From positions 272,882-336,881 of the IMG/VR virus record IMGVR_UViG_3300005529_000001: 64,000 nucleotides of DNA. One strand, written 5' to 3'. A model generated the notes under the pieces. That model saw only the letters and a list, made by a program, of their open reading frames with translations, did no database searches and was not told the origin of the DNA. Within the stretch, counting starts at the first letter, position 1. The number at the start of each line of letters is the position of its first letter. This document shows, one piece after another, positions 6,182 to 63,913 of the stretch. Source of the DNA: a virus. The position numbers and the translations under genes were made by a program.

Positions 6182-7828
6182 TCACTTCCTGAGCCAGTCG
6201 AAGTCCGAGACAAAACGACCGTAGGGACTACGTTGCAATTCTTGTGGGTTTCGTGGCCGCATGACGCTGTACGCGTTGACGCCGGCGATGTTCGGGTCGA
6301 CAAGCGGTTGGGCTTCGTTGATGTTCCCGGGCATCTTGTTGATGTCTTTCCTGTCCACGTGGGTGGCAGCTAACATTGCGTATGCCATCTCGCGCGCTTG
6401 TTCGCTGACCTGACCACCACCTTCGATGAGCCATGTTCCGATCGCCAAGCTCAGGACCAGGTCATCCCACGAGTCCTTTCCCGCAAGAGCTTTGTTCCCT
6501 TCCCAGATGAACGACTGGAGCTGGTCAAACAGGCGTCGCGAATATGACCTCAGTTGCTTGTTCCTGATCAACTCTTCTAGCTTAGCCAAGATCTGTGTTC
6601 GGGTCTTCTGGTTTGTGTTTGGAAACCCAGGTAGCTCGTCCTTAGGATCGATGGGCATGTAGTTGAACGGGTCACCCGTGTGCTTGGGATAGTAGAGCTT
6701 TTTGTAGTTGATCTGGTCACGTAGTTTCACACAGACCAGGTATCCGAAGGTGTTTTGTTCTGGGATTATGAGGGCATCGCAGTACTTTTTGCCCCACTCC
6801 GCTAGCAAGTCTGCCAAGTGCTCTGGCGGGATCTTACCCATGTACTCAGCACACACCTCATTGTCAACGGTGTCAATGACATGGAACGCTGAGTAGTCAT
6901 GCGCATCACCACGGCTGACGTCCGCGCTCAACACATAACGGTGACCCGCGACAGGCGGGCTCCAAACCCAGACACCGCCCGCAGGCCCCTCTTTCGAGAT
7001 GGGTGGCATGATCATTTCACGCAGGTAATCGAGCTCTTCGGGCTGGAGGAATGTGTCACCTGATGCAATGAAGTCACACATGAACTCTTGCGCAATCTGA
7101 CGCTTGTTCATGCCCTTTGATTCGTTCTTGAACCATGCTTCATCGTGTTCAGGATGGACGGTCCAGTGAAGCCGGATGGGGTTGAAGCCGTTGAGTCCCG
7201 CTTCGGCTTCCGTCCACAAACGGTAATACTGCCCGCCGACGCCCTTGGGAGTCGATAGCACGATCGCCTTGCCACCCGTCGAGATCGTTGGTTTCAGACC
7301 CGTCCAGATCTCTTCAAAATCACGAATGATAGCAGCTTCATCAACTATCAGAAGCGACAATGCTTCTGATCGGCCCGCATCTTCAGATGTTGGGATGGCA
7401 ACAACCTGCGAGCCGTTGTCAAAAGTAATGGCTTGCTTGGTGGGCTCAAACTTGGGCAGCAACAACCACTTGGGCAAATTGTCAAGGATGACCTTGCACT
7501 TTTTGATCATGTTCATCGCGGTGGGAAGCTTGGTCGCGATGATGAGGATGTTCTGGTCCTTGTAAAAGATGGCGAGCCACGTTGCGTACGCTGCACATAA
7601 CGTAGACAGACCCAGCTGTCTTGACTTCAAGATGATGTTAAGACGGTGTTCTATGAACTGCCTGACGCAGTCATCCTGAAACGGGTACGTTTCAAATGGG
7701 AGCAAGCCTCGAGCGGGGTGCTGGATCTTGCAATACTTCTTCATGAAGTAGACAGGATCCTTGCCACACTTGATTATCTCCTCGATCTGCTCCTGCTTTG
7801 ACAGGGGTTTTGGAGCAGCTTTCGTCAT
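6182..7828 (-). CDS. terL: terminase large subunit (T4 gp17-like)
   Basis: Walker A-like KSRQLGLST (T4 SRQLGKT), Walker B LLIVDEAA, C-terminal RNaseH-like nuclease region (LSADVSRGDAHDYSAFHVID). Confidence 0.9.
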   Translation of the reverse strand: MTKAAPKPLSKQEQIEEIIKCGKDPVYFMKKYCKIQHPARGLLPFETYPFQDDCVRQFIEHRLNIILKSRQLGLSTLCAAYATWLAIFYKDQNILIIATKLPTAMNMIKKCKVILDNLPKWLLLPKFEPTKQAITFDNGSQVVAIPTSEDAGRSEALSLLIVDEAAIIRDFEEIWTGLKPTISTGGKAIVLSTPKGVGGQYYRLWTEAEAGLNGFNPIRLHWTVHPEHDEAWFKNESKGMNKRQIAQEFMCDFIASGDTFLQPEELDYLREMIMPPISKEGPAGGVWVWSPPVAGHRYVLSADVSRGDAHDYSAFHVIDTVDNEVCAEYMGKIPPEHLADLLAEWGKKYCDALIIPEQNTFGYLVCVKLRDQINYKKLYYPKHTGDPFNYMPIDPKDELPGFPNTNQKTRTQILAKLEELIRNKQLRSYSRRLFDQLQSFIWEGNKALAGKDSWDDLVLSLAIGTWLIEGGGQVSEQAREMAYAMLAATHVDRKDINKMPGNINEAQPLVDPNIAGVNAYSVMRPRNPQELQRSPYGRFVSDFDWLRK

Positions 7829-8544: not shown

Positions 8545-11135
8545 GCTTCACTGTACACCACCCGTGCATCCTTCTCGACCTTGTTCACCTCGATGATGTG
8601 GTCAGCAACGTCCTTGACACCCTCGACATGAGTGATAACGATGATGGTCTTGAAGTACCTCTTCAGCGACATCAACAGCCGGTTGCACTGTTCGATCGAG
8701 GCTGGGTCCATCGGGCCAAACGCTTCGTCAATGATGAACATGTCTGTCTTGGGCAACGATGAGAGATTGATCAGGGCGACACGGAGGGCAATGGAGGCCA
8801 CTGTCTTCTCCATGCCCGAGCCTAGCTCGATCGGGCGGCGGCTGTCACCGTAGTTGATGTAAACTTCCATCGCATCGCTATCGTTGTCAACCTCAAGCTC
8901 GATGTTGAAATTGACAATGCCCGTGAGGATCTTGCTGATCTCCGCATTGATGACAGGTAACTGGCTGGTGATGATTAGGTTTGGTATTCCCTTCCGTGAG
9001 AAGGCTTGAGCGATCAACTCATGCGCTTTCATCAAGCCAAGCATCTTTTCACGTTGCTCGCGGTCCTGTTCCAGCTTATCATAGTTAGACTGTTCACGAC
9101 CCTTCTTTGAAGCCAAGTCAAGTCTCTCACTGTCAACCTGACGGAGACGGCGGAGTAGGTCATCTTTCCGGTGACGAAGCGCAACTGCTTCAGCGTTCTC
9201 CTCGTTCTTAAGCGCTTCCTCGAGCTCAATGAGCTTCTGGTTCGCTTCTTTCACCCGAGGATAGAGGACGCTGTTGAGCTCGAGCATCTTCTTGTCATAA
9301 TCACGTTGTTCGTCTGCTAACTTGGTCAACAGGTCACCACGCATGTTACGCAGCTGGAGCAGCTTCGTTACCCGGTTGGACAGGTCCTCGTGGCGTAGCT
9401 CCACGAGCGCGTCATCTGCTTTGTTCAGCTTCTCCAACGCTTTTTCGACACGTTCCTTCTGCGGTTCGACCTTGTCTTTGACTTTATGCGCGTCCTTAAT
9501 GAATCGGCAACCTGGGAACTGATCACCACAGGGCACATCATCCAAGATTTTAAGCGACCGTTGTTGTTGCTTCAACAGGGCAGCTTCCTTTTCATGAACA
9601 ACACGTAGCTGATCGACAGCGGCCTCAAGCGTCTTATAAGCCTCAAGCCTCTTCTTCAGTTCATCAACGTCATTGTCGCGGAGCAAAGCGTCAATGGTGC
9701 TGACCTTCTGTGACTTCTGGCTCATCGAGGTCACCAGGTCACTGATCTGTTCATTGACCTTGGCACCCTGGTCACGCAGTGACTGAAGATATGACCGTTG
9801 TTTCTCGACCTCCGTCGGGGTAACCATCACTACGTCCTTAAAGGACGATTCTTCTCGGGCAACATCGGTGAGCTGGACTTGGATGTCGTGCTTCTCGTGA
9901 TCCTTGATCCCGATCTGGGCATCGAGGCTCTCGAGCGTTTCTTCAAACTTCCGTTGCGCCTCGGGCCAATCACGATCGGGCAATGACTTCAAGGCGGTTT
10001 TGTTAACGTTGACGTCATCCTTGGCTAGGTCATACATCTTGTCAAAGATGTCGAGATCCAAGAATCGTGCCACGGTCTGGCGCCGTTTGGTCGAGCCTTG
10101 GTTGATGTACTGTTTGATGTCGTCCTGTGCAGCGATGCTCGTCAGCAAGGCATCCTCGCCGCTGCCAATCAGCTTCCTGATGACACGGTCAGTGTCCTTA
10201 CGTTCTTCACCACCCAAGTCTTCCAGTTCACCCCCATCGACAATTTTGAAGACATTAAGGTGAGTGTTAGCGTGCTGGCGGCCCCACTTGTCTTCGTGCT
10301 TAACGGTCTGGCGTTCGATGATGTAGTCGCTGCCGCCCGAGTTGATGATGGCTCGGGCGTAAGCGTAGTCGTGCCGCACGTTGACAACATGGAGGTTCTT
10401 GATGCTACCGCGGTCCGACGTGTTGAACAGGACGTACAGGATGGTACCCACCACTGACGACTTGCCCTGACGGTTGGGACCGAAGATGCCGACGATGCCA
10501 TTCAGAGCATCGAAGTTGATGATGTTCCCCTCACCGTACGCGAAACAGTTGTCCCACTTCAGGTTACGAAGTGTCCACTTGGTGTTCCGAGCCACCTCGT
10601 CGTTGCCCAGGACCTTGCCCAGGTAATGGATGATCTGATCACGAACAGCTTGCCATTCTGTCTCAGTAACGTGAGAAGACGTGTGATAGTCCTTCAGCAA
10701 CCGTAACAGGACGTCCGGGTTGCGCAAGTCGTCCTTTGCAAGCGTCGCGGTACCAGCGCTGATCAGCTCCCTATCGAGTTGGTGATCTGTCTTGAAAGTC
10801 ACCTCACTAGCTTTCAGCTGCTCTTGCAGCTGTGACATCAGCTTGGTCACTTCTTTTTGGGCCAGGATCTCTGTCTTGCTCCTGATGCGATACCGCGTAC
10901 CAGGCGGGTAGTTAGCTACCTTCTTCAGGGTCTTCTCAACGTCACCCGCCCAATCAACAGTCACAAACGGTTTCGGATTGGGCAGTTCTTCGAACTTGAC
11001 ATCAAACTTGTCCCTGTTCTCGATGTCCCACAACAGGTAACCGTGAACCAATGACTCGCCATAGTTTTGCTGGACCGGACTGCCGGGGTACGCGACCCAC
11101 GGCCGCTTGACGCGGATCTTGATACGCTTGCTCAA
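8511..11135 (-). CDS. Rad50/SbcC-like recombination ATPase (T4 gp46-like) carrying an N-terminal segment homologous to the C-terminal part of Mre11/SbcD; starts at TTG overlapping upstream TGA
   Basis: N-terminus VAYPGSPVQQNYGE resembles SbcD YxGSPxxxSF segment; then Walker A GPNRQGKSS, long coiled coil, signature LGSGMEKT (LSGGE), Walker B MFIIDEAFG, H-loop ITHVE; GAGGTG SD 5 nt upstream of TTG. Confidence 0.85.
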   Translation of the reverse strand: MSKRIKIRVKRPWVAYPGSPVQQNYGESLVHGYLLWDIENRDKFDVKFEELPNPKPFVTVDWAGDVEKTLKKVANYPPGTRYRIRSKTEILAQKEVTKLMSQLQEQLKASEVTFKTDHQLDRELISAGTATLAKDDLRNPDVLLRLLKDYHTSSHVTETEWQAVRDQIIHYLGKVLGNDEVARNTKWTLRNLKWDNCFAYGEGNIINFDALNGIVGIFGPNRQGKSSVVGTILYVLFNTSDRGSIKNLHVVNVRHDYAYARAIINSGGSDYIIERQTVKHEDKWGRQHANTHLNVFKIVDGGELEDLGGEERKDTDRVIRKLIGSGEDALLTSIAAQDDIKQYINQGSTKRRQTVARFLDLDIFDKMYDLAKDDVNVNKTALKSLPDRDWPEAQRKFEETLESLDAQIGIKDHEKHDIQVQLTDVAREESSFKDVVMVTPTEVEKQRSYLQSLRDQGAKVNEQISDLVTSMSQKSQKVSTIDALLRDNDVDELKKRLEAYKTLEAAVDQLRVVHEKEAALLKQQQRSLKILDDVPCGDQFPGCRFIKDAHKVKDKVEPQKERVEKALEKLNKADDALVELRHEDLSNRVTKLLQLRNMRGDLLTKLADEQRDYDKKMLELNSVLYPRVKEANQKLIELEEALKNEENAEAVALRHRKDDLLRRLRQVDSERLDLASKKGREQSNYDKLEQDREQREKMLGLMKAHELIAQAFSRKGIPNLIITSQLPVINAEISKILTGIVNFNIELEVDNDSDAMEVYINYGDSRRPIELGSGMEKTVASIALRVALINLSSLPKTDMFIIDEAFGPMDPASIEQCNRLLMSLKRYFKTIIVITHVEGVKDVADHIIEVNKVEKDARVVYSEAWPGDRTSETV

Positions 11136-11779
11136 GCAATCACCTCAGCTTCTGGGTATTTTGCGAGTTCGCTCTCGTCAATCTCGAGCTCAACGTCTCG
11201 ACCCGCTAGGAACTGCATCTTGTGAATGTCTCCAAGCAAGACAAAGTCCCAACCACGGAAGAACTCAACCGTGATGCCCTCTTCAACCAACCAGTCACTC
11301 TCGGTTGTTGCTCCCCACACGGGACCGTGATAACACGCGATGTTGATCTTGCCGGGTACGGGCTTTACGTTGTCCCAGTTCGGTTCATCGAACAAGCTGA
11401 AGATGCCCCAGATATATCCGGGCGAAAACTCATACGTACCACTTTCCTTGTAGACGTGAATACGTGGGTTCTTCAACGCTTTGACGATGGGCGTCACCGC
11501 ATCCAAACGTGACAGGTTGACAAGGTTACCGTCGTGGTTTCCGAGAGTAAGATGCAGTTCAGCTGTCTCTGACAACGTTTCAAGCCACCAAACCATCTGT
11601 TCGATATACTCAGGCGACAAGCCTGAGGTCTTGGTGTGAAAGATGTCGCCTCCTACAAAGACGTGGTCAACCTTCTGTTCTTTGACCTGACGTGCAAAAG
11701 CAGAAAACACCTCTCGGTATTCGTCGTGCCTCGATAGTCCTCGCCAGTGAACGTCGGCAGTGTGAGCGATCCTCAACAT
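11132..11779 (-). CDS. Mre11/SbcD nuclease, N-terminal phosphoesterase domain only (T4 gp47-like)
   Basis: Motifs I-V present: AHTADVHW, GGDIFH, GNHD, CYHGP, GDIH; ORF stops (TGA) right after motif V where homologues continue. Confidence 0.85.
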   Translation of the reverse strand: MLRIAHTADVHWRGLSRHDEYREVFSAFARQVKEQKVDHVFVGGDIFHTKTSGLSPEYIEQMVWWLETLSETAELHLTLGNHDGNLVNLSRLDAVTPIVKALKNPRIHVYKESGTYEFSPGYIWGIFSLFDEPNWDNVKPVPGKINIACYHGPVWGATTESDWLVEEGITVEFFRGWDFVLLGDIHKMQFLAGRDVELEIDESELAKYPEAEVIA

Positions 11780-11848
11780 CTGATCTACATCTGATCAGTA
11801 CCGTGCCACCGAAAGGCTGTACAAGATCAAACTCTAGCACGCAAGCGT

Positions 11849-12853
11849 TCAACGTGAAAGAACGGTTCTTGACACAAAATCGAGCTTATCTCGAAACGAT
11901 TCAAACCAAGAAAACGAAGGAGCGGAAGCAATCAGTTGCTTCATCTGTGCCTTCGTTAGGCTACCTGGATCGGCATCTTTGGGCAACCGAACAATTCTGA
12001 CGGGTACATCGTAATCTACTAGCTTCCTCGCAAGGACGGGTACCTTGGTGTACCTCATGTCATCATCCAGAGCTATCACGATGGGCGTGTTATGCGCAAC
12101 GATAGCGTTAAACAACGTGCTCTCTTCGTTAAGATCGCTGCCTAACAGTGGAACAGAATTGTCTGGACACTTCACCAGATCGAAAGGACCCTCACACAAG
12201 ACAAGCTCACGTGTCCAATCGATATTCAGTTCATTGAAGATGATGGGTAGCTTGTCTTCATCTGGGTTGTCATACCGCTGTTTGAACTTGTCGATCGCTC
12301 TCCCCACGAAATAGTTCAACTCCCCCTCGCCGTTGAAAGAGGGCATGATGACCCGTCGTTTCCACCTGGGATCATCGCTATATCCCAGCTTGAAATACCA
12401 GAGATCGCGTTCCGTCAAGCCACGACCCCTTGGCATCGGTTCCATCAAATACCGTCGCATCGCAAGGACATCAGGATCACGTAATGACGCAGTCGCCAGC
12501 AACTTGAAGTCCTTGGGTAAAGCCAGCTTTGGCTTCTCTTCCATGACGTCAATGATGAGACATCTCCGCCGGGGTCCCTCTTGGGCCGGCATGAACTTCT
12601 CAACGTACTCAAGCAGTTTGTCTCTGGTCGAGTATTTCTTCAGCAACGGTGCCAGGGTGTGAGCCTTGTACCCACACGACCAACAATGGCACCTGTCATC
12701 CTCGATCAGGATCGCTAGCTTCTTCTTGCTGTGATCTTTCGGAGCGCAGATGGGACAACGAACGTCAAAATTCTTGCCGTTCCTCGCTAGCTTTCCGCTG
12801 CCAAAACAGCTCTCGATGAACCGAACTTTGTCTGAGATTGTGATCAGACCCAC
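11849..12853 (-). CDS. DNA primase (DnaG/T4 gp61-like)
   Basis: Zinc finger CPICAPKDH...CHCWSCG and TOPRIM-like LCEGPFD. Confidence 0.8.
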   Translation of the reverse strand: MGLITISDKVRFIESCFGSGKLARNGKNFDVRCPICAPKDHSKKKLAILIEDDRCHCWSCGYKAHTLAPLLKKYSTRDKLLEYVEKFMPAQEGPRRRCLIIDVMEEKPKLALPKDFKLLATASLRDPDVLAMRRYLMEPMPRGRGLTERDLWYFKLGYSDDPRWKRRVIMPSFNGEGELNYFVGRAIDKFKQRYDNPDEDKLPIIFNELNIDWTRELVLCEGPFDLVKCPDNSVPLLGSDLNEESTLFNAIVAHNTPIVIALDDDMRYTKVPVLARKLVDYDVPVRIVRLPKDADPGSLTKAQMKQLIASAPSFSWFESFRDKLDFVSRTVLSR

Positions 12854-34279: not shown

Positions 34280-34885
34280 TCAGGCACCGATGATCTTGTC
34301 AACAATGCCTAGCTTGATCGCGTCTTCGGGTGTCAAAAAGTAGTCAAGCATCGGGCGCATAAAGTCCTTCTCTACTTTCTCCTTTGACATCTTTGTCTCT
34401 TTCACGAGAGCGCTGACCATCAGCTCCTGGAGCCGGCGCGCTTCTTTTGTCTCGTTTTCCATCTCAAAGATGTTTCCCATGACGCCTCCTGAGATCGGGT
34501 GGATCATGATGCGTGCAGATGCACCGATCAACCGCTTGCCCTTGACTCCAGATGCCAGCAAGAGCACGCCTGCCGACATCACCTTTCCCAAACCCACCGT
34601 GTGAACGGGACACGGCAAAAACTTGAGGATGTCATAGAGAGAAAACATCTCGTCAACGCTGCCACCGTAGGTTGACACAACAAGATAGATCGGGTTCCGA
34701 TTCAGGTTAGCGAGGTGTAGTAATTGCGCGATAACATTCGCAATCGAGTGTTCGCTGACCTCGCTATGCAAGTACACGATCCGAGTGTTGTCTACTTGCG
34801 ACGCTAGAGCACGAGTGAGATGCTCGATCTGATCTTCTTCTTCCGCAGTGACACGGTTCCGGTTTTCAAGCGTCGCTCGACCCAT
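34280..34885 (-). CDS. clpP: ClpP-family serine protease
   Basis: GKVMSAG (Ser), IMIHP (His), downstream Asp region; ClpP-sized (201 aa). Confidence 0.8.
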   Translation of the reverse strand: MGRATLENRNRVTAEEEDQIEHLTRALASQVDNTRIVYLHSEVSEHSIANVIAQLLHLANLNRNPIYLVVSTYGGSVDEMFSLYDILKFLPCPVHTVGLGKVMSAGVLLLASGVKGKRLIGASARIMIHPISGGVMGNIFEMENETKEARRLQELMVSALVKETKMSKEKVEKDFMRPMLDYFLTPEDAIKLGIVDKIIGA

Positions 34886-35120
34886 CTGGACCTCCCATTA
34901 CAAACAGATCTTCGCCACCCAACTCACGAACGAGCTTGGTGATCGCCTTCATCTGTTCAACATTCTCGAGTTCTGAGCTCAACAGGTAGACAAGAAACAA
35001 CGTCTGACGTTGTGTCAAGCCTCCTTGCAAGTTGATTTCACGCACAATCTGGCGACAGTGCTCGTTTTCTTCGGCACGTTTTTCAGATTGCATCTGCCCA
35101 TAGCGCACCGCGTCAGTCAC
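34866..35120 (-). CDS. hypothetical protein
   Basis: 84 aa ORF coupled to clpP. Confidence 0.35.
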   Translation of the reverse strand: MTDAVRYGQMQSEKRAEENEHCRQIVREINLQGGLTQRQTLFLVYLLSSELENVEQMKAITKLVRELGGEDLFVMGGPDGSSDA

Positions 35121-35587
35121 TTGACGACCTCTTCTTCACGTTCAAACCCGGCAACATCAAACATGTTTTCACCCAAGATACGAACGTACTTACCGGAACG
35201 GGTTCCAGCATCAGTGTCAGATGCCAAAACCACGAACTCTCCCCACTTCTTGTTGTCATAGATGTGTTTAGCCATCTCCCACGTTGGAAGGTCACAATCA
35301 CTGCCCTCCAAGATGTCAGCCAACCTGGGTGCAAGCGATGCTTTGATATCAGCGATCGTCACAATTGAGTTCATCGATTCCTTGCCGCTGATGATCTCTG
35401 AACGGTTGATCTCCACCACACGGTGGACGATGCCACAGTTATTGCACTGAGCATACTTTGGGATCACAGTATCATCGTCAGCAACGACAGAAAACACGGT
35501 GAACTGGTGCAAGGGTGGCGAGGCTGCCCGTTTGAACTGCGGCAACGTGCAACGACACGTCACCAGGTGCTTCAAGCCCATTGACAT
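35117..35587 (-). CDS. hypothetical zinc-ribbon-containing protein
   Basis: CRC...CNNC cysteine pairs; 156 aa. Confidence 0.4.
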   Translation of the reverse strand: MSMGLKHLVTCRCTLPQFKRAASPPLHQFTVFSVVADDDTVIPKYAQCNNCGIVHRVVEINRSEIISGKESMNSIVTIADIKASLAPRLADILEGSDCDLPTWEMAKHIYDNKKWGEFVVLASDTDAGTRSGKYVRILGENMFDVAGFEREEEVVK

Positions 35588-35985: not shown

Positions 35986-37416
35986 ATGGCACCATCGCTC
36001 AAAGAACGGTACGACCAACGCCAGCTGCAACTGCTCCAGGAACACACCAGAGCAGCTGACGCGCAACTGTTGCAAGAACAACAAACCGCTGAGTTGTTGC
36101 TCGAAGCGATGGATCCTGAAGACTTGCAAAAAGTCACCGCGATCGTTCAGAAACTAGACACGATCAAATCTCCAGAGCTTCCTCACCTGTCACAAGCGAT
36201 CGAACAAGCCCAGGCTGAACTAAACAAGTACACGGGTGGTGGGCCCATTGCTGCGGCTTGGTCCAAGCTAAAGACCAAGGTCGGTATCGATAACCCGGTC
36301 GTCAAGGTCACCACGTTTGCCGACGCTCTCGAGCGTGGGTTTTCACAGATCCCAACGATCTTGAAAAACAATGGGGTTGACCTCGCAAAAACGGATCTCA
36401 ACAAGAGCTTGTCGACCACGTTACAAACACAACAGCCCACTGGTGCTGGTGATGGTGAAGGCGGGACCAAGTCAAACGTTACAGGCAAAGCGAATGACAA
36501 GGAAGACCTTGAATACAAGCCCACGCCCAAGAAGATCGGGGCCAAGAGCGATGAAGAGCTGGGCAAAGCTCGCTTTGGTGACAACAGGAAGAACGACGAG
36601 ACCCACTACGACATTCCAGGTCCATCTGGGACCCAACCCGGGACCAAGCCAGGAACTGCCCCTGCAACGGCAAAGAAACCGCCGCCAGCACAGCGCACAG
36701 GAGGCCAGGACCAGCCACCAAAACCCGCTCCTGGGGTGAAAAAACCGCTAGCAGCTAGCAGGAAGATCTCATCGGCTGACGAGGGACACAACCTTGATGA
36801 GGCAGGGCCGAGCGCGAGCGTTTCGGGTGATCAAAAGCTGAAGAACATTGTCGCTCAAATACGCAAAGCCCTAGCGCCGGGAGGCTTGTTTGGGGCATTC
36901 AAACGAATCCCATACATCGATAGCGCTGCGCTTGCTCAAGAGCTTGTCCAAGCGCCAATCAAGGTCTTTTCGAACGTTGCAAAACGCATCCAAGCAGGAG
37001 CAAAAGCATCTGAGATCGCGCCTGACATGCGTAACCAGATCCAGGGCCAGGGTGACCAACAGACAAAGCACGCGAACACAGCGACTCCCACCAAACAAGC
37101 TGGGCAATCGCAACCCGGACAGCCAGCCAAGCCGACCACGGCTACGACTGACACGACGAGCACCGGACAGCAGCCTCCCAAGGGTCCGGGTGAAAAACGT
37201 GGTGGTGGAGCCGAAGCGAAAAGCCCGAGCGAAGCGGGCGGAACATCTCCCTCTCAAAAAGCCCAGCAGTTTCGTTCGGGTCTTGACAAGATCTACAAGG
37301 GAGCCGGCGTTGATGCCAACATGGGCCAGAAGCTCTTGAAGTACCTCATCAACAACAAACTCCTGGACCGCGGTGCCGTTGAAACACACGGTGCTGGTGA
37401 ACCAAAAGCAGCCTAG
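35986..37416 (+). CDS. intrinsically disordered Pro/Lys/Thr/Gly/Gln-rich protein with N-terminal coiled coil
   Basis: ATG 35986 with AGAGGGGA RBS; 1.4 kb stop-free frame in ~52% GC DNA; opposing-strand ORFs fragmented. Confidence 0.5.
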   Translation: MAPSLKERYDQRQLQLLQEHTRAADAQLLQEQQTAELLLEAMDPEDLQKVTAIVQKLDTIKSPELPHLSQAIEQAQAELNKYTGGGPIAAAWSKLKTKVGIDNPVVKVTTFADALERGFSQIPTILKNNGVDLAKTDLNKSLSTTLQTQQPTGAGDGEGGTKSNVTGKANDKEDLEYKPTPKKIGAKSDEELGKARFGDNRKNDETHYDIPGPSGTQPGTKPGTAPATAKKPPPAQRTGGQDQPPKPAPGVKKPLAASRKISSADEGHNLDEAGPSASVSGDQKLKNIVAQIRKALAPGGLFGAFKRIPYIDSAALAQELVQAPIKVFSNVAKRIQAGAKASEIAPDMRNQIQGQGDQQTKHANTATPTKQAGQSQPGQPAKPTTATTDTTSTGQQPPKGPGEKRGGGAEAKSPSEAGGTSPSQKAQQFRSGLDKIYKGAGVDANMGQKLLKYLINNKLLDRGAVETHGAGEPKAA

Positions 37417-38609
37417 GACAGGTAAGCACCGAGCTGAGACAGGGTCTTGATGCACCTGTCGGCATGCACGCGCGCTGACATCTCAGTCGCCACAAGCTCA
37501 CCTGTTTCAGTCACGCCAAAATCTACGGCAGACTTGATGGCACGAAGCGCGTTGTCGATGGCTTGCGAACAGACAACATAGTCTCTGTCATCAGGCAACC
37601 TGATGATGACATGGTTTGGGCTCAATGACTTGATCCGCTTGTCAAGGAGCTTTCCCTTGTCATCGACTTGTTCGTCTTCACGGCGCTTACGTAAGTTAGC
37701 GACATGTACAGCGACCTGGGCATGGGTGGAGGTGTTTGCAACGATCGTCCGGCCCTTGAAAACAGTGACCTGTTCAACGTAAGGTGCATCATGAAACTTG
37801 ATCGAACTGATCAGATCACCCTTGAGGCTTGACACTAGGTCAGCCCCACAAACAACCGAGAGATCGACCAAAGAGTTCATCCCGTCAAGATCAAACGGGG
37901 CGCTGATGGGCAACATCCTCAAGCTACCACGGTCATAGTTGACCTTCAAGGTGTGCTTGACATCATTGCTCATCCCACGAAGGAAAACAACGACGGGTTC
38001 TTTTGCTGTAGCAGCAGCTTCAAGCAAGTGATGGATCTCGGACACTTCTTCAACATACCCGTCGATGCAAACCACTCGCGGATGGACAAAGCTGGCGTCG
38101 ATGGGCAAGATCGGGACCAAATCAAACGTGTAACCCCTCACAAGCTCAACGGAAGGAGTGAGGGAGTGTGTCTTCTCGATGATGATGCGGCCGCCGTAAC
38201 CAGCTAGCTCGAGAGCACGTTCTAACATCTTTGTGGTACGAACTCCCGCTCGAGAAGCATGGGCGTTGACGAGGCTTCTCACGTCAGCGGCAGTGGCTGA
38301 CCTGGGTTCCAATTGGGTGGGACGCGGGGGTACTTCAAGTGCACCCAATTTTTCAAGAACGAGGTCAACGGTGCGGTCAAAGCCCCCGGGACCCAATTTT
38401 TCTGCATGGAGGGCGTGGGTCATGATAGTTTCATGGACCGACCTGTCAAACTCAGAAGACATCTTCGAGTTGAAAACGACCTGCATGTGAGAGTGGACCA
38501 GCAAGCGGTCTTTCTCACGGACCAACGCCGCCCTGACATCCTTCATGGCAACAAGCCGAGCACGCACTCTCCTGAGCGTTGCTGCTGAATCAATGTTGAC
38601 GTCTCCCAC
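37413..38609 (-). CDS. GroEL-like chaperonin homolog, truncated (no C-terminal equatorial segment) with degenerate ATP-binding motif
   Basis: Apical region KEPVVVFLRGMSNDVKHTLKVNYDRGSLRMLPISAPFDLDGMNSLVDLSVVCGADLVS aligns to GroEL [59 protein letters not shown]; intermediate-domain match; DGTTT position reads AADVRS; ends near GroEL ~415. Confidence 0.65.
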   Translation of the reverse strand: MGDVNIDSAATLRRVRARLVAMKDVRAALVREKDRLLVHSHMQVVFNSKMSSEFDRSVHETIMTHALHAEKLGPGGFDRTVDLVLEKLGALEVPPRPTQLEPRSATAADVRSLVNAHASRAGVRTTKMLERALELAGYGGRIIIEKTHSLTPSVELVRGYTFDLVPILPIDASFVHPRVVCIDGYVEEVSEIHHLLEAAATAKEPVVVFLRGMSNDVKHTLKVNYDRGSLRMLPISAPFDLDGMNSLVDLSVVCGADLVSSLKGDLISSIKFHDAPYVEQVTVFKGRTIVANTSTHAQVAVHVANLRKRREDEQVDDKGKLLDKRIKSLSPNHVIIRLPDDRDYVVCSQAIDNALRAIKSAVDFGVTETGELVATEMSARVHADRCIKTLSQLGAYLS

Positions 38610-38626
38610 CTGGAGACTCTACACCC

Positions 38627-39058
38627 TTACTGTGTGTAGTGGATAAGAAGGTGACCGGTGAGGATATCAAAAACGAGCTTCCCAGCTCCCGTAAGAGCAG
38701 CCGTTCCCGCGAGACCCAAGAGCCCCTTGATGACCCAGTTTGCGGTGTTGATCCAGTTCAACGCACCCTTGACCTTCTGGTAAAGGCCCTCGTCCTTGTC
38801 ATAGATCGCTTTGTGAACCTCATCCAGCTTTTTCACCTGGGTGTCCTGGCCCATCTTGACGTCTTTGAGATCGGTCTCAATCGTGTCGATCTTGCTGATT
38901 TTTTCCATGAGGTGATCGAAACCACCGTTCAGGACATGGGCGTCTTCGAGCTTCCTGTCAAGCTTGGCCAGGACATCATCCTGTGCCGCAAGACGCTCAA
39001 CGATCTCCGACGTTGTTGGCTTTCTACCCGGGACTAGTGCAGCTTTCTTGGTGGCCAT
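38627..39058 (-). CDS. coiled-coil protein with C-terminal transmembrane anchor
   Basis: C-terminal hydrophobic NWVIKGLLGLAGTAALTGAGKLVFDIL. Confidence 0.45.
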   Translation of the reverse strand: MATKKAALVPGRKPTTSEIVERLAAQDDVLAKLDRKLEDAHVLNGGFDHLMEKISKIDTIETDLKDVKMGQDTQVKKLDEVHKAIYDKDEGLYQKVKGALNWINTANWVIKGLLGLAGTAALTGAGKLVFDILTGHLLIHYTQ

Positions 39059-43760: not shown

Positions 43761-44334
43761 TGATTTCTTCAAGGCTTATGCGGATTACCTGAAAGAGCCC
43801 ATTGTCCGTAAGAACCACGACCGCATCTTCCGTGATTGGTTCGAAGAGACGTGCCCATGTCAGCTCAAGGTCGTCGACATTGGTTGTGGTTTAGGTGAGT
43901 TCCACCAACATGGTTTCAAGTTGCAGTATGTAGGACTTGATCTCAACCCACGTGTCAACGCTGATACTTTGAAGGTCGACTACACTAAGCGTGAATGGGT
44001 GAAGGACCTGCCCTTCCTACCCAATGCATTCGTCAGCTTGTTCTCGTTGGAGCCCATGCTCGATGTAAGCGAACGGTATTCCTACTACGACTGGCTTTTT
44101 GATGCCATTCCAACGCTTCAATTCGGTCTGTCAGCCGGTTTCTACTACGCCAGCAAGGCCGATCACTTCATGGTCGGTGAGGCAGGCGATATCACCAGCT
44201 ACCAGACTATTGAGAAGCTCGGCGAGCACGGCAAGGGCTCATACCACGAGGAATGGACGGTCATGCACACGCCATCTGTCATGTTCGGACAAGATGTGGT
44301 CGAGATCTGGAAAAAATTCACGAGGAAAGTATGA
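43750..44334 (+). CDS. SAM-dependent methyltransferase
   Basis: Motif I VVDIGCGLGEF; start re-set to ATG 43750. Confidence 0.6.
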   Translation: MYSDDFFKAYADYLKEPIVRKNHDRIFRDWFEETCPCQLKVVDIGCGLGEFHQHGFKLQYVGLDLNPRVNADTLKVDYTKREWVKDLPFLPNAFVSLFSLEPMLDVSERYSYYDWLFDAIPTLQFGLSAGFYYASKADHFMVGEAGDITSYQTIEKLGEHGKGSYHEEWTVMHTPSVMFGQDVVEIWKKFTRKV

Positions 44335-44567
44335 GAAGGTTCTACCTACAACGCAACCAGGACGCCTCGGGCGTCTCGGGCCTGGGTAAGGTCGCTGAGG
44401 GTTGCCAGTTTGACACGGGTTGGTGTGCGTTGATCTGGCTGACGGGTAAGTCAGCGATGAGTTACTATCCAGACATCGAAACAATCATCATGATCCACGG
44501 TCATAATGGGATGACACAGGTCACTTGGGTCGATGACGAAAGCTCGAACGTTGTCATTGAACGTTGA
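44331..44567 (+). CDS. hypothetical protein
   Basis: ATGA-coupled 78 aa ORF. Confidence 0.3.
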   Translation: MRRFYLQRNQDASGVSGLGKVAEGCQFDTGWCALIWLTGKSAMSYYPDIETIIMIHGHNGMTQVTWVDDESSNVVIER

Positions 44568-44797
44568 ATGGTCCAGTGAAAATGAATCTAAAAGTGATCT
44601 TCGAAGCAGCAAACGGTGAACGTGTAGAACGTGAGCTCAAGACGGCGTGGTCTACCGAAGTGATGCGTGACCTAAAGTCGTACAAGGGGATCACGGTGGG
44701 GGAGGACATGAAACAGATCCTCGCAAATACGATCGCAGAATGTATCAACCCTGAGTTCGTCATGAGCGTGCTGACTGAGTTTGAAAACAAGACGTAG
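44564..44797 (+). CDS. hypothetical protein
   Basis: 77 aa. Confidence 0.3.
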   Translation: MNGPVKMNLKVIFEAANGERVERELKTAWSTEVMRDLKSYKGITVGEDMKQILANTIAECINPEFVMSVLTEFENKT

Positions 44798-53902: not shown

Positions 53903-54809
53903 CACCCTCGAGTACGCCAAGACCAACTGCTTCCAACACCAGTTGCTAAAGAGCCTACGAGGCATTGCACAAACAGAAACGTGTGCCTTGCCAGCGCTGG
54001 AACGTGCCCTGGACATGGATGACCGTCCTGTCATCGTTTGCCTGAAACAACGAACCCTGGCACAAAATCTGGACGTGCTCAAAGATCATTTAGGAGACAC
54101 GCCCATTGTCATATACGATCAGGACCCGTGGCAAGCCTACATGGATGATCCTGGTTATGTTGGCAAGGGAGTCTATGAACGCGCTGTCGAGCAACTAAAT
54201 GTCAAAGCGATCTGCGTTACCACCCAATGGTGGGCTGATTTCTTAGCGCACCGCGGTTTACCTGGCATTTTCGTCAACATGTGGATGTTACCCGAGTATT
54301 GCACCGAAACGCCAACATACGAAGACAGATCAATATCTGTAGGTTTCGTCGGCAGCCTGCATCCGCACCGTCAAAAGCTGTTTGACCAGCTCGAAGACAT
54401 GGGCATCATCGTCAACGTCCAAGGGGGAGGTCTGTCTTACCAGAGCTATTTGAACGAGCTATCAAAGATCCGTGTCTTCATCCATAGCGAAGATTGCCCA
54501 ATCATGTGTGAAAAGCAAGAACTCAACCTGAAAGACGCCCTGTGGATCAAAGACATTGAAGCCGCGGCTCGGGGTTGTTTCACCATTCGTAATGCGGGCG
54601 CGGGTTTCTTATCGTATTATGATGGGTGTTTGACGTCGTTTCTCTACGAAAACGTCGAAGACATCCCAAACATCCTGAGTGACATCCAGAAAATGGATCC
54701 CACGTCAAGGCAGTTGCTAATCAACAGCGCCGTCAGGTACATCCGTGAGTCAAACAAGTGGGAAGAAACGGCACGCACGTTGGTTACTTTGGCAACAGAG
54801 GGAACATGA
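53868..54809 (+). CDS. hypothetical GT-B-fold-like protein
   Basis: 313 aa; size/position compatible with PseG-type UDP-sugar hydrolase. Confidence 0.3.
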   Translation: MMSSPRILQLVDTLEYAKTNCFQHQLLKSLRGIAQTETCALPALERALDMDDRPVIVCLKQRTLAQNLDVLKDHLGDTPIVIYDQDPWQAYMDDPGYVGKGVYERAVEQLNVKAICVTTQWWADFLAHRGLPGIFVNMWMLPEYCTETPTYEDRSISVGFVGSLHPHRQKLFDQLEDMGIIVNVQGGGLSYQSYLNELSKIRVFIHSEDCPIMCEKQELNLKDALWIKDIEAAARGCFTIRNAGAGFLSYYDGCLTSFLYENVEDIPNILSDIQKMDPTSRQLLINSAVRYIRESNKWEETARTLVTLATEGT

Positions 54810-56083
54810 AAATAGGGTTCATGGGTCTGGGCAAGCTCGGGTTACCCGTTGCCCTGGCGGTGGAAGCCGCGGGCCACGAGGTGATGGGTTATGATCCTGG
54901 CGCTCAAGTTGTTGACATCATATCGACAAAGAAGCTACCGTATGTCGAAGAGAACGCCCAACCGTTGCTCGACAACACCAAGCTCCGGCTAGTAGGTCCC
55001 GGTGACCTGGTCGAACAGTGCGACTTGATCTTCGTAGCTGTCCAGACGCCCCACCACCCACGTTATGAGGGAGTCAGTCGCCTTCCGACCAAGCGAGTCG
55101 ATTTTGATTACACCTGGCTAAAGCAGTCGATCACCCAGCTCGCTGATGCTGCGGCCCAGAAAGCGAAGACGACCCGTGTTGTTGTCATCTCAACGGTGCT
55201 TCCCGGGACGATCGAACGTGAGATCTTCCCAATCATGCATGCGTACGGAAACTTCATCAAGCTGTGTTACAACCCGTTTTTCATCGCGATGGGAACCACG
55301 ATCCGTGACTTCACCAACCCAGAATTTGTTCTCTTTGGGGTAGACGATCACGAAACAGCAACCCTTGCTGAAACGTTTTACAAGACCATCCACGCTCGTC
55401 CCTTCTACAAGACGGGAATCAAGGAAGCTGAGCTGATCAAGGTTGCTTACAACACATTCATCAGCACAAAGATCGGGTTTGTCAACACGTTGATGGAGAT
55501 CTGTCACAAGACGGGTGTCAATGTCGATGCGGTCACAGACGGCTTGAAGCTAGCTAACGAACGTCTGATCAGCACCCGCTACATGACGGCTGGCATGGGC
55601 GATGGTGGCGGGTGTCACCCTCGCGATAACATCGCGTTGTCTTGGCTCGCTCGTAAGCTTGAATTGGGCTTTGATTTCTTTGAAGCGATCATGCTTTCCA
55701 GAGAACGACAGACGGATTGGTTTGCTGATGTGCTTGAAGAGCAGATCGAACAATGCCGGAAGATGGGCTGGAACCCGCCCGTTGTCATCCTCGGTCTATC
55801 TTTCAAACCGGAGACAAACCTGGTCACGGGCAGCCCGGCAATCTTGCTTGCAAACGTCATAGCGGAGCGTGGCATCACTCCCATGTTCTATGATCCCATT
55901 GTCAACCCCAATGACCGGACCCGGACGCTTCCCCCACCACCTGCTCTGTTTTTTGTGGGTACCAAGCACGCTGAGTTTGCAAACATAAAGTTTAGCGTAG
56001 GATCGATCGTTATCGACCCACACCGGTACATCCCCGATCAGCAAGGCGTCACTGTCATCAGGTTGGGTGATGGGACCAAGTGA
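54806..56083 (+). CDS. UDP-sugar 6-dehydrogenase family protein
   Basis: KIGFMGLGKLGLPVA NAD-binding motif; catalytic Cys GGGCHPRDN. Confidence 0.7.
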   Translation: MKIGFMGLGKLGLPVALAVEAAGHEVMGYDPGAQVVDIISTKKLPYVEENAQPLLDNTKLRLVGPGDLVEQCDLIFVAVQTPHHPRYEGVSRLPTKRVDFDYTWLKQSITQLADAAAQKAKTTRVVVISTVLPGTIEREIFPIMHAYGNFIKLCYNPFFIAMGTTIRDFTNPEFVLFGVDDHETATLAETFYKTIHARPFYKTGIKEAELIKVAYNTFISTKIGFVNTLMEICHKTGVNVDAVTDGLKLANERLISTRYMTAGMGDGGGCHPRDNIALSWLARKLELGFDFFEAIMLSRERQTDWFADVLEEQIEQCRKMGWNPPVVILGLSFKPETNLVTGSPAILLANVIAERGITPMFYDPIVNPNDRTRTLPPPPALFFVGTKHAEFANIKFSVGSIVIDPHRYIPDQQGVTVIRLGDGTK

Positions 56084-57877: not shown

Positions 57878-58885
57878 ATGAGCGAGTTTGGAATTGTCAT
57901 CATGCGGGCACAGCCCTTTCACAATGCGCACCTGGAATTGGTGCGTTTTGCGCTTAAGGAAGCGCAAAAAGTAGTCATCATCCTGGGAAGTGCCAACGCG
58001 CCCCGGGACACAATGAACCCCTTCACCGCCGACCAACGGCGTGACATGGTCAGGAGTTGCCTGACTGCCGACGAGCTCTCTCGTGTCGAGATCATCTCCG
58101 CGAAAGACTACCTCTCAAACAACATGTGGATCGCAGCGGTCCAAAACTCGGTCGATGCTGTCACGGGCGGGTCCAGTGATATCAAGCTGATCGGTCACAA
58201 GAAAGACGCCTCAAGCTTCTACTTGAAGCTGTTTCCACAGTGGAGCTTCCATGAGACGGGAGCTTTCTCTGAGCTCAATGCGACGAGCGTCAGGGAGAAC
58301 CTGTTCCGACAGGATAAGATCACCATCAAGACGCAGGTGCCGAAGCCGGTCTACGACTACCTGTGCTCTTGGATGGAGAGCGCTGAGTACAAGCGCCTCC
58401 ATGGTGAGTACAAGAACGTACAAGAAGAACATGCCGCTTGGGAGGAGAGCCCTTACGTCCCCACCTTCGTGACGACAGACGCCATCGTCATCTGCAGCGG
58501 TCACATCCTCATCGGCCGCCGGGGTGGAGCTTACGGCAAGGACCTGCTGGCTTGGCCAGGTGGGTACCTAGAGCAAGACAAGTCAATCCTGGACTCTTGC
58601 ATCCGTGAGCTCCGGGAGGAGACGAAGCTCAAGGTCTCGACCGAAGACCTGAAGAAGGCGGTCATCGATAAGGACGTTTTCGATGACCCCCGGCGCGACC
58701 AACGCGGGCGTGTCATCACCCATGCCTTCTGTTTCAAGCTGCCCGATGGGCGGCTACCTGAGGTCCAGGGTGCGGACGACATGGCCAAGGCATGGTGGAT
58801 GACCATCAACGAGTTCTACACCCGAGAGCTCGAGTTCTTCGCAGACCATTTCAAGATGGGCTGCCGTTTCATCAATCGATTTTAA
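57878..58885 (+). CDS. nadM: bifunctional NMN adenylyltransferase / Nudix hydrolase (NadM-Nudix)
   Basis: H-x-G-H type PFHNAHL; Nudix box PGGYLEQDKSILDSCIRELREETKL. Confidence 0.85.
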   Translation: MSEFGIVIMRAQPFHNAHLELVRFALKEAQKVVIILGSANAPRDTMNPFTADQRRDMVRSCLTADELSRVEIISAKDYLSNNMWIAAVQNSVDAVTGGSSDIKLIGHKKDASSFYLKLFPQWSFHETGAFSELNATSVRENLFRQDKITIKTQVPKPVYDYLCSWMESAEYKRLHGEYKNVQEEHAAWEESPYVPTFVTTDAIVICSGHILIGRRGGAYGKDLLAWPGGYLEQDKSILDSCIRELREETKLKVSTEDLKKAVIDKDVFDDPRRDQRGRVITHAFCFKLPDGRLPEVQGADDMAKAWWMTINEFYTRELEFFADHFKMGCRFINRF

Positions 58886-58941
58886 AAAGTTCCGCCCGAT
58901 CGAGCCAGAGAGGCCCGCGAGGCGCATCACGGAGAGTGAAT

Positions 58942-60393
58942 ATGAGAACCACATACATCAGGACGTACCTTAGAAAACCCGACCTCGAGCTCAGCGCGAT
59001 CGAGGACACTGACTCGTATAAATTCAGCCACTTCCCCATGTACCCGGGCATGTCGTACATGGAGAGTTATCTCGAGGCTCGGGGCGGCGAGTTCGACACC
59101 TGTACCCTGTTTGGGTTGCAGTACGTCATCCACAAGTACATCGCCAAGCGTGTGACAGCAGCTGATGTCGAACGTGCTGAAGCCTTCGCCCTGGCACACG
59201 GTGAGCCGTTCAACCGCAAAGGTTGGATGCACATCGTCACGAAGTACCACGGTTACCTTCCCATCACCATCCGCGCCATCCCAGAGGGCATGGTGGTGCC
59301 CGTCAAGAACGCCGTGATGATTGTCAGGAGCCCGGTCGATCCCGAGTGTGCCTGGATCACTAACTGGTTGGAGACGTTGCTGTCCAGGGTCTGGTACCCG
59401 TCGACGGTCGCCATCGCGAGTCGCGAGATCAAGAAGGTCTGGAAGCATTACCTCGACCTGACCAGCGACACCCCCGAGGAGATCAGCTTTAAACACCATG
59501 ACTTCGGTTCGCGTGGCGTCACCAGCCAGGAGCAGGCGATGCTCGGCGGCGCGGCCCACCTGCTTAACTTCCTCGGTAGCGATACCATCGCGGGCATCCG
59601 CATGGCGAATCACTATTACGACGAAGCCATGGCGGGTTTCAGCATCCCAGCCACCGAGCACTCGACGATCACCATCTTCGGTCGTGACCACGAACGTGAT
59701 GCCCTCAAGCTCTGGATCCAGAAGATGCTGGTCGAGCGTCAGGTCCCCGAAGGGCTGCCCAAGCTCGCTGCTTGCGTTGGCGACTCTTACGACATTTACC
59801 GTTTCACGGAGATGGTTTGCGAACCCGAGATCTACGCCATGATTAAGGGTTCGGGCGGCACCCTGGTCGAGCGCCCCGATTCGGGCGACCCGATCGAGGT
59901 GCTTCTCAGGATCCTCGGCATCATGGAGGATCGCCTCCCAAAGGGTGAGATCACTGTCAACTCTAAGGGTTTCAAGGTGTTGCCTGCGTGCCTCCGTCTC
60001 ATCTGGGGCGATGGCATCAACCGTCGCAGCATGAAGACGATCCTGAAGGCAATCACAGACGCAGGATGGAGCGCCTCAAACCTGGCTTTCGGTTCGGGCG
60101 GTGGCCTGCTGATGGATTTCAACCGCGACACCCAGAAATGGGCGTTCAAGCTGTGCTACGCCATCGTGGACGGCACACCGCGCAAGGTGTCGAAGGACCC
60201 GATCACCGACCCGGGCAAGCGCTCGAAAGAGGGTCACCTCGATTTGATCGTCACCCCAAATGGCGTCGAAACGGTCACTATTCCAGACAATGTTGCAGCT
60301 CATCACAACAGCGTCATGGTGACCTACTACGATGGTGGTGACATCACATTCCACACCGACATGACCGCCTGCCGGACAAGGATGGCGATCTGA
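58942..60393 (+). CDS. nadV: nicotinamide phosphoribosyltransferase (NadV/NAMPT)
   Basis: NAMPT-like regions GSDTIAG, HSTITIFG, GSGGGLLMD; ATG 58942 with GGAGAG RBS. Confidence 0.8.
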   Translation: MRTTYIRTYLRKPDLELSAIEDTDSYKFSHFPMYPGMSYMESYLEARGGEFDTCTLFGLQYVIHKYIAKRVTAADVERAEAFALAHGEPFNRKGWMHIVTKYHGYLPITIRAIPEGMVVPVKNAVMIVRSPVDPECAWITNWLETLLSRVWYPSTVAIASREIKKVWKHYLDLTSDTPEEISFKHHDFGSRGVTSQEQAMLGGAAHLLNFLGSDTIAGIRMANHYYDEAMAGFSIPATEHSTITIFGRDHERDALKLWIQKMLVERQVPEGLPKLAACVGDSYDIYRFTEMVCEPEIYAMIKGSGGTLVERPDSGDPIEVLLRILGIMEDRLPKGEITVNSKGFKVLPACLRLIWGDGINRRSMKTILKAITDAGWSASNLAFGSGGGLLMDFNRDTQKWAFKLCYAIVDGTPRKVSKDPITDPGKRSKEGHLDLIVTPNGVETVTIPDNVAAHHNSVMVTYYDGGDITFHTDMTACRTRMAI

Positions 60394-63757: not shown

Positions 63758-63830
63758 GGGTCCGTAGCTCAATGGCAGAGCAGCTCGATTTCAACCGAGT
63801 GTGTTGCGGGTTCAAGTCCCGTCGGGCCCC
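63758..63830 (+). tRNA. tRNA-like gene, 73 nt, 8-nt anticodon loop AUUUCAAC; anticodon ambiguous (UUC/Glu or UCA register)
   Basis: Acceptor GGGUCCG/CGGGCCC, D-arm GCUC-AAUGGCA-GAGC, T-arm GCGGG-UUCAAGU-CCCGU; only good anticodon stem GCUCG/CGAGU forces 8-nt loop. Confidence 0.6.
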
Positions 63831-63836
63831 CAAAAA

Positions 63837-63910
63837 GCTCCCGTAGCTCAGAGGCAGAGCAGCCGGATTTCAACCCGATGCGGTCGTGGGTTCGATCCCC
63901 ACCAGGAGCG
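63837..63910 (+). tRNA. tRNA-like gene, 74 nt, same AUUUCAAC anticodon-loop, weaker stems
   Basis: D-arm GCUC-AGAGGCA-GAGC, T-arm GUGGG-UUCGAUC-CCCAC, acceptor with one C-A mismatch; anticodon stem imperfect. Confidence 0.45.
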
Positions 63911-63913
63911 CAA

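Follow-up and report, generated by a model that had tools for sequence, protein, structure and literature searches.

A shortened group I chaperonin relative that has almost certainly lost ATP binding, encoded by uncultivated T4-related huge phages

Gene and domain layout of the mini-chaperonin

The DNA analysed here is a stretch of 64,000 nucleotides (the window; positions 272,882–336,881 of the IMG/VR virus record IMGVR_UViG_3300005529_000001), which represents 64 kb of a 369,506-bp contig. It carries a gene for a GroEL-like protein, referred to below as the mini-chaperonin, in which the apical and intermediate domains of a group I chaperonin are retained alongside a reduced equatorial part. 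The initial annotation had placed an open reading frame (ORF) at 37413–38609, and a complete ORF lies at exactly these positions on the minus strand, encoding 398 amino acids (aa) from a GTG start at 38609 to a TAG stop at 37413–37415. The product is ~150 residues shorter than GroEL.

We modelled the protein with AlphaFold2 from an 80-sequence family alignment (mean predicted local distance difference test, pLDDT, 91.6; predicted template modelling score, pTM, 0.79). By the secondary structure of the model, residues 1–91 (38337–38609; this and the following segments are all on the minus strand) form a reduced N-terminal equatorial stub, in which an N-terminal strand is followed by a helix (8–22), a beta-hairpin (27–40), a short helix (41–46), a further helix (53–72), a GPGG turn and a last helix (76–89). 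Since G76 pairs with GroEL G119 in a phmmer search against the PDB, this order of elements indicates that the protein has retained the stem-loop and helices A, B, D and E of GroEL; by the same model and anchor, it has lost helix C along with the GDGTTT phosphate loop. The N-terminus is ~40 residues shorter than that of GroEL.

Sequence and profile alignments delimit the first intermediate-domain segment at residues 92–157 (38139–38336). It includes the motif AADVRS (107–112), equivalent to GroEL ~144–149, and a conserved LAGxGGRIIxEK...SVELVRGY run that leads to the hinge glycine G159 (GroEL G192); G137, G140, S153, E155, L156 and G159 are invariant in the 80-sequence alignment. The complete apical domain follows at residues 158–333 (37611–38138), with a remodelled helix H/helix I face (EVSEIHHLLEAA ... 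DVKHTLKVNYDRG) and with the counterpart of GroEL loop 204–211 deleted. The second intermediate segment, residues 334–364 (37518–37610), corresponds to GroEL helix M in a single register given by phmmer, hhalign and hmmsearch, and contains the invariant Q349, D352, L355 and R356. According to hhalign and hmmsearch, residues 365–398 (37416–37517) are a C-terminal equatorial remnant in which the invariant hinge residue Gly365 (GroEL G410) is followed by a single helix (373–391, ~GroEL 417–442). The chain ends there, and GroEL 443–548 has no counterpart. The initial annotation had the protein stop near GroEL residue ~415 without the C-terminal equatorial half; that half is indeed missing, but the end point lies further on, the alignments reaching ~423–442.

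Relationship to GroEL and predicted fold

The phmmer search of all PDB sequences returned 66 chaperonin chains, the best at E = 1.3e-13 with residues 76–378 aligned to GroEL ~119–423. PHROG 5725 ('chaperonin groEL') matched at E = 1.7e-16, and tblastn with E. coli GroEL (in the sequence used, stretch 119–423 agrees with the PDB alignment and the landmark residues were checked) found a single site in the window, the mini-chaperonin gene, at E = 2e-14. These matches, in the middle and C-terminal parts of the protein, bear out the GroEL homology noted in the initial annotation, and the segment quoted there, TLKVNYDRGSLRMLPISAPFDLDGMNSLVDLSVVCG, aligns to GroEL 261–297, from helix I onward. With hhalign, residues 115–397 map to GroEL 148–442, and an hmmsearch with the family profile extends to GroEL 432; by these two methods similarity at the sequence level is confined to GroEL ~132–442. 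Neither phmmer nor the family-profile hmmsearch detected sequence similarity of the N-terminal part to GroEL 1–118.

The protein nevertheless does not reach the score of a curated GroEL-orthologue family over the full length. Six NCBIfam GroEL models matched at E = 4e-13 to 7e-18, but with 59–64 bits against cut-offs of 352–582; the GroEL equivalog model TIGR02348, whose cut-off is 582.1 bits, scored the protein at 59.4, with profile positions 153–426 of 526 covered. Pfam Cpn60_TCP1 (PF00118) does not match the window protein and matches 3 of the 80 family members. At the level of structure, a Foldseek search of the PDB with the AlphaFold2 model returned group I chaperonins for all of the top 50 hits (E = 3e-23 to 5e-20, probability 1.0). 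The model and these matches indicate that all three chaperonin domains are represented. Absence of a chaperonin fold had been named in advance as an outcome that would overturn the GroEL assignment; the predicted structure instead places the mini-chaperonin in the group I chaperonin superfamily, with the equatorial, intermediate and apical domains of the Cpn60/GroEL fold.

Loss of the nucleotide pocket

We then compared the residues that form the GroEL site for adenosine triphosphate (ATP). The place of GDGTTT (GroEL 86–91) is occupied by a variable loop at residues ~47–56 (NSKMSSEFDR), a placement given by the tblastn register (GroEL 97 = residue 60) and by the order of secondary-structure elements, and no DGTTT-like motif occurs in any of 56 family ORFs. 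The catalytic Asp398 corresponds to Asn353, and among 80 relatives this position is Tyr in 63, Asn in 7, His, Arg and Ile in 2 each and another residue in 4. GGG414–416 is unconserved in the family. With the protein ending at ~GroEL 442 in the hhalign alignment, the N479/A480/D495 region is absent, and the inter-ring contacts R452/E461/S463/V464, the C-terminal beta-strand and the GGM tail have no counterpart in the same alignment. The GroEL nucleotide pocket (GDGTTT loop, D52, D398, G414–416, N479/A480 and D495) is therefore not reproduced: every nucleotide-binding element is absent or unconserved, and as judged from the alignments the mini-chaperonin almost certainly cannot bind or hydrolyse ATP.

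The initial annotation had also called the protein ATPase-dead, on the argument that the GDGTTT position reads AADVRS. That argument fails because the alignment was mis-registered, AADVRS aligning in phmmer to GroEL ~144–149 (IAQVGT); the conclusion itself holds on the grounds given above.

Family, selection and integrity of the gene

A homologue search retrieved 268 close relatives. The 120 listed among them are mostly 360–430 aa long, with a few shorter fragments, have identities of 45–100% and in many cases lie on contigs of 300–370 kb; the mini-chaperonin is 100% identical to one (P0001) and 45–77% identical to the other 119. Most family members have no source name, and a few Joint Genome Institute (JGI) entries are labelled GroEL. 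A profile search of 1.84 billion representatives yielded 633 clusters at 50% identity with E <= 1e-30, and the best 150 of these 633 (E <= 6e-78) measure 360–440 aa, obvious fragments aside. In IMG/VR we located 56 viral loci (L numbers below denote loci) with identity down to 27% and ORFs of 370–465 aa, and full-length chaperonins were found in 0/56. The window protein shares the traits of this family, namely a length of ~360–465 aa and, downstream, a homologue of the neighbouring gene p156 described below. The motifs IDGyIE-VSEIHHLLE, TLKVNYDRG, SSLKGDLIS and RIKSLSPNHV are invariant or nearly so.

The ratio of nonsynonymous to synonymous substitution rates (dN/dS; Nei–Gojobori, against the two closest DNA relatives) is 0.10–0.12 overall, 0.065 in the intermediate and apical part, 0.13–0.33 in the equatorial stubs and 0.33 in the N-terminal stub, all rough figures with dS near saturation. 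The overall value contradicts the earlier description of the gene as 'degenerate' in the sense of decay. We also considered whether a frameshift, an assembly error, a pseudogene or stop read-through might hide a full-length GroEL. Two transfer RNA (tRNA) genes in the window have unusual anticodon loops containing UCA and raise the question of stop recoding, but the mini-chaperonin gene ends in TAG and not in TGA, which itself serves as the main stop codon and terminates 37 of 47 long ORFs. In-frame continuation past the TAG gives antisense junk with further stops, opposite a conserved convergent gene. Sequences assembled independently from many samples repeat this length, dN/dS is ~0.1, and the conservation of length across hundreds of independent contigs refutes an artefact, to which we assign a negligible probability. 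The truncated architecture is selected and is not an error.

The family was not found in 50,697 deposited phage genomes (megablast, and tblastn with the window protein and two distant members), and no relative was present in 185,579 GTDB species genomes, which offered no bacterial or prophage home and no host clue. On the strength of these two absences the family is restricted to uncultivated phages. Within an uncultivated clade of T4-related huge phages the mini-chaperonin gene belongs to the core; it is functional and strongly constrained.

The sole match among phage records was a host groES–groEL pair in a Staphylococcus record flagged UNVERIFIED_ORG, which we rejected as a cultured relative. 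This record (L063, OR844996.1, 'Staphylococcus phage SA 1306 Kay', 121.7 kb) holds a typical bacterial groES–groEL operon at 82763–88524 and is probably partly or wholly host DNA rather than phage.

Remodelling of the apical face

Per-position counts from the 80-sequence family alignment show where the constraint lies. Averaged over positions, the frequency of the top residue reaches 0.72 for the apical domain and 0.77 for the second intermediate segment, compared with 0.48 (residues 1–100) and 0.54 in the equatorial stubs, so that the equatorial stub is the least conserved part of the protein. In canonical GroEL the equatorial domain is the best-conserved part, and the pattern in this family is the reverse. 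From this we infer that function would reside in the apical and intermediate parts.

Within the apical domain, the groove that binds substrate and GroES in GroEL has changed in character. GroEL L234 and P235 correspond to H193 and H194 (His in 80/80 at each), L237 to L196 (Leu in 78/80), L259 to K218 (Lys in 64/80), V263 to K222 (Lys in 67/80, Arg in 13/80) and V264 to V223 (Val in 74/80), and GroEL T261, N265 and R268 are kept as T220, N224 and R227, each in 80/80. The loop bearing F204 is 8 residues shorter, with Gln or Pro in place of Y199 and Ile, Val or Leu in place of Y203. The protein thus has neither the hydrophobic helix H/I groove nor the Y199/Y203/F204 loop of GroEL. A polar face that is nearly invariant favours one specific ligand and weighs against promiscuous hydrophobic capture or GroES binding.

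These changes bear on the proposal in the initial annotation that the protein is a substrate/GroES-binding module, a decoy or an inhibitor of host GroEL/GroES. Such a protein would hijack the host chaperonin either as a GroES decoy or as a poison subunit in host GroEL rings, and it is, after all, homologous to GroEL, has the apical fold intact and retains the N-terminal strand as well as the stem-loop hairpin (residues 27–40), elements that take part in ring contacts in GroEL. T4 provides a precedent, its gp31 retargeting GroEL. The GroES/substrate contacts, however, now read His, Lys and Lys (L234 to H193, L259 to K218, V263 to K222), the Y199–F204 loop is shortened, and the C-terminal strand required for the inter-subunit sheet is absent. 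The ring interface of host GroEL is very well conserved across bacteria, whereas the equatorial stub, conserved less than any other part of the family protein, has no similarity to GroEL in sequence. Given the altered groove and the unconserved stub, we regard a hijack of the host machinery as decidedly unlikely. The 'assembly holdase' that had been offered beside it is possible, as a partner-specific rather than a promiscuous binder.

Genomic setting and neighbouring genes

The window is phage DNA, with genes for the large terminase subunit (TerL, 6182–7828), a portal protein (3628–5778), a primase, an SbcC-like protein, a helicase, PhoH and ClpP. The TerL is of T4 type, being 38–40% identical to those of Flavobacterium phage immuto and Microcystis phage Mel-JY01 and ~33% identical to those of T4-like cyanophages. 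Across the 56 loci the gene order around the mini-chaperonin is conserved. Read in the direction of the mini-chaperonin, a glycosyltransferase gene points away, a gene that we call TM143 and the mini-chaperonin gene run forward one after the other, and the gene of a disordered protein converges on them; beyond it follow p96, p156, p84, ClpP, helicase, Hc1, sigma-r4 and PhoH.

TM143 (38627–39058, minus strand, 143 aa) lies directly upstream, separated from the mini-chaperonin by a 17-nt gap. Its product has a predicted helical N-terminal part and a hydrophobic, Gly-rich C-terminal segment, WVIKGLLGLAGTAALTGAGKLVFDIL, and found no family match in Pfam, PHROG or NCBIfam. A homologue occupies the same position in 37 of the 56 viral loci, and also in L001, L003 and L005. 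The two genes are probably co-transcribed, and TM143 is a candidate membrane-tethered partner of the mini-chaperonin. The T4 late promoter TATAAATA, which we had sought upstream of the operon as an indicator of expression timing, is absent from the whole window.

The convergent gene (35986–37416, plus strand) encodes a 476-aa low-complexity protein rich in Pro, Gly, Lys, Gln, Thr and Ala that is probably disordered and gave no family matches. Its TAG stop and that of the mini-chaperonin overlap within the palindrome CTAG, which leaves no room for a downstream continuation of the mini-chaperonin. The overlapping convergent layout is kept in L001, L003 and L006 and was detected in 31 of 56 loci; the protein itself evolves fast (24–63% identity) within this conserved arrangement.

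The most persistent neighbour is p156, a gene for a 156-aa CxC...CxxC protein (35117–35587, minus strand) that lies downstream of the mini-chaperonin in 56/56 viral loci. We considered p156 as an analogue of GroES or gp31 and rejected it, as it has no GroES-like fold; p84, p96 and TM143 were likewise dismissed as co-chaperonins, having no signal in Pfam, PHROG or NCBIfam and, by eye, no all-beta Cpn10-like character. No cognate Cpn10 (GroES/gp31) gene was found among the conserved neighbours, and no Cpn10/gp31 signal was detected within the 64-kb window of the 369.5-kb genome.

These searches also speak to a split chaperonin, one still driven by ATP, in which another gene would encode the missing equatorial half or a lid of the GroES type. 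The examined stretch is 64 kb of the 369.5-kb genome and includes small conserved neighbour genes of 84, 96, 143 and 156 aa that might supply such a part. Tblastn of GroEL 1–120, GroEL 406–548 and GroES against the window, however, found nothing beyond the known segment (best E > 0.3), the neighbours have no Cpn10/Cpn60 signal and, in the case of p156, no GroES-like fold. Moreover, GDGTTT is gone although it belongs to the N-terminal half that is present, and D398 is not retained. On this evidence, which covers 64 kb of the 369.5-kb genome, a split machine is very improbable.

About 2.5 kb downstream of the mini-chaperonin lies a gene for a 201-aa ClpP-type serine protease subunit (34280–34885, minus strand; Pfam CLP_protease E = 2.6e-42; PHROG 94), which is present in 42 of the 56 loci and adjoins replication genes, not a head module. 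No Clp ATPase was identified among the annotated ORFs of the window. This gene invites a reading in which the chaperonin fold has become a neo-functionalised scaffold, either as a 7-fold ring that docks on the ClpP of the phage and, independently of ATP, serves it as a gate or adaptor, or as an enzyme or metal-binder built on His-His, Asp and Asn. The ClpP gene is bona fide and syntenic, GroEL and ClpP rings are both heptameric, and the invariant polar residues are unusually many for a chaperone surface. ClpP is, however, missing from 14 loci, including those of the most divergent members, in which the mini-chaperonin and p156 persist; the ring itself is hypothetical, and we recognised no known catalytic motif in the protein. 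We consider either form of such a scaffold unlikely.

At L062 (1010–5477), the most distant branch of the family, three genes precede the mini-chaperonin, encoding a 391-aa ORF (PHROG 10856, 'sporulation protein'), a 444-aa ORF (PHROG 35217) and a 644-aa serine kinase of the PrkA/YeaG type. We read the trio as a phage-borne cassette similar to SpoVR–YeaH–PrkA/YeaG, an assignment made by tools for the kinase only. The kinase is 31–34% identical to kinases from Thermus phages and from uncultured phages with genomes of 600 kb. We examined the cassette as a functional clue to the mini-chaperonin and found it uninformative.

Proposed function

To explain a strongly selected GroEL relative with neither a nucleotide pocket nor a hydrophobic groove, we propose that it is a natural mini-chaperonin of group I descent that acts as an ATP-independent, partner-specific binding module, a holdase or an adaptor, of T4-like huge phages. 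We assign this reading a probability of roughly 0.55. Because it would have no nucleotide cycle, the protein would be unable to serve as a folding cage, and it may work by binding alone. Its helix H/I-groove face appears to have changed from promiscuous and hydrophobic to almost invariant and polar (His-His, Lys, Lys, Asn, Asp, Arg), and such a face would probably recognise one specific partner. The partner would most likely be a phage protein that is kept assembly-competent or delivered to another machine.

Several points weigh against this proposal. The mechanism is derived from the parts kept and the parts lost, so that both the binding partner and the chaperone activity are putative. The invariant polar residues are numerous (S153, E155, Y160, H193, H194, R211, D226, D240, N245, D249, R325, Q349, D352 and R356) and would be compatible, too, with a site for catalysis or metal binding. 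The most persistent neighbour, p156, yielded no functional clue, and the search for GroES, gp31 and a second chaperonin covered 64 kb of the 369.5-kb genome.

A bolder form of the binding-module proposal is a phage-only, nucleotide-free mini-GroEL ring of 7-fold symmetry that captures one client, e.g. a gp23-type capsid protein, with its remodelled polar apical face, or docks on ClpP as a gate that needs no ATP. We hold this to be unlikely. If true, such rings would make up the first natural class of chaperonin derivatives that dispense with nucleotides, and docking on ClpP would be a symmetry-matched pairing of chaperonin and protease, unlike the hexamer-on-heptamer Clp machines.

Comparison with known chaperonins

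Canonical GroEL/Cpn60 proteins, such as E. coli GroEL and Plasmodium falciparum Cpn60 (PDB 7k3z), have the ATP site, ring contacts and hydrophobic groove that are lost here, and GroEL works with GroES, for which no counterpart was found in the window. Engineered GroEL minichaperones (apical 191–345 and 191–376; PDB 1jon and 1kid) show chaperone activity. They were made in the laboratory and have the hydrophobic groove in its native form, whereas the phage protein is natural and selected and has both intermediate segments, an equatorial stub and a polar groove. The large-phage GroEL homologues gp146 of Pseudomonas phage EL (PDB 6tmt) and the chaperonin of phage OBP (PDB 6hdd) work without a GroES-type lid, and the phage EL chaperonin prevents aggregation without encapsulation (PMC7185714). 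The mini-chaperonin differs from such full-length phage chaperonins (PHROG 5725) in lacking their ~540-aa length, a match over the whole profile and, almost certainly, an active ATPase.

More distant comparisons concern the CCT-like domain of PIKfyve/Fab1 (PDB 7k2v) and T4 gp31. The former is a non-ATPase of group II (CCT) origin inside a large kinase, and is a distant structural match only that does not imply an evolutionary link. With GroES-like gp31, phages have a route to folding a T4-type capsid protein, and the terminase links the present phage to T4; gp31, however, is a lid of Cpn10 fold that needs host GroEL, whereas the mini-chaperonin derives from the large subunit.

In the literature we found no description of a natural phage GroEL family of ~400 aa without an ATP site, and truncated forms go unmentioned in a survey of virioplankton chaperonins. 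Chaperonins are generally presented as machines driven by ATP, and to our knowledge there is no report of a natural GroEL relative in which the entire nucleotide pocket is missing. With the function that we infer for it, the mini-chaperonin would be at odds with the general understanding of chaperonin mechanism: the nucleotide pocket has been discarded, yet the protein is under strong selection across hundreds of huge-phage lineages. The family makes it testable what apical and intermediate domains alone can do in vivo and what ring assembly minimally requires. It also gains a name and a fold, after having been mostly missed by standard annotation (Pfam, 3/80). Should the partner be the capsid protein or ClpP, large phages would turn out to have a new way of freeing themselves from host proteostasis.

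Other features of the window and related loci

Two tandem tRNA genes at 63758–63831 and 63837–63911 (plus strand) are genuine by Rfam (52 and 47 bits). Both share the 8-nt anticodon loop AUUUCAAC, for which ARAGORN gives a 4-base anticodon UUCA that contains the opal-reading UCA; they could be opal-suppressor or quadruplet-decoding tRNAs. Right of the mini-chaperonin, within a block of glycosyltransferase and methyltransferase genes, small genes at ~44331–44797 (plus strand; 3813–4279 in L005) match Pfam Acb5 (78 aa) and Gp23 (71 aa). Acb5 is, to judge by its name, possibly an anti-CBASS family.

In L003, the syntenic helicase gene (10073–12831) is interrupted, with ResIII and Helicase_C_2 on separate ORFs and a weak Intein_splicing match, which suggests that the helicase contains an intein. 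The window also holds two auxiliary metabolic genes, encoding a UDP-glucose dehydrogenase (54758–56083, plus strand; PHROG 9148, E = 4e-80) and a nicotinamide phosphoribosyltransferase (58792–60393, plus strand; PHROG 448, E = 3e-131).

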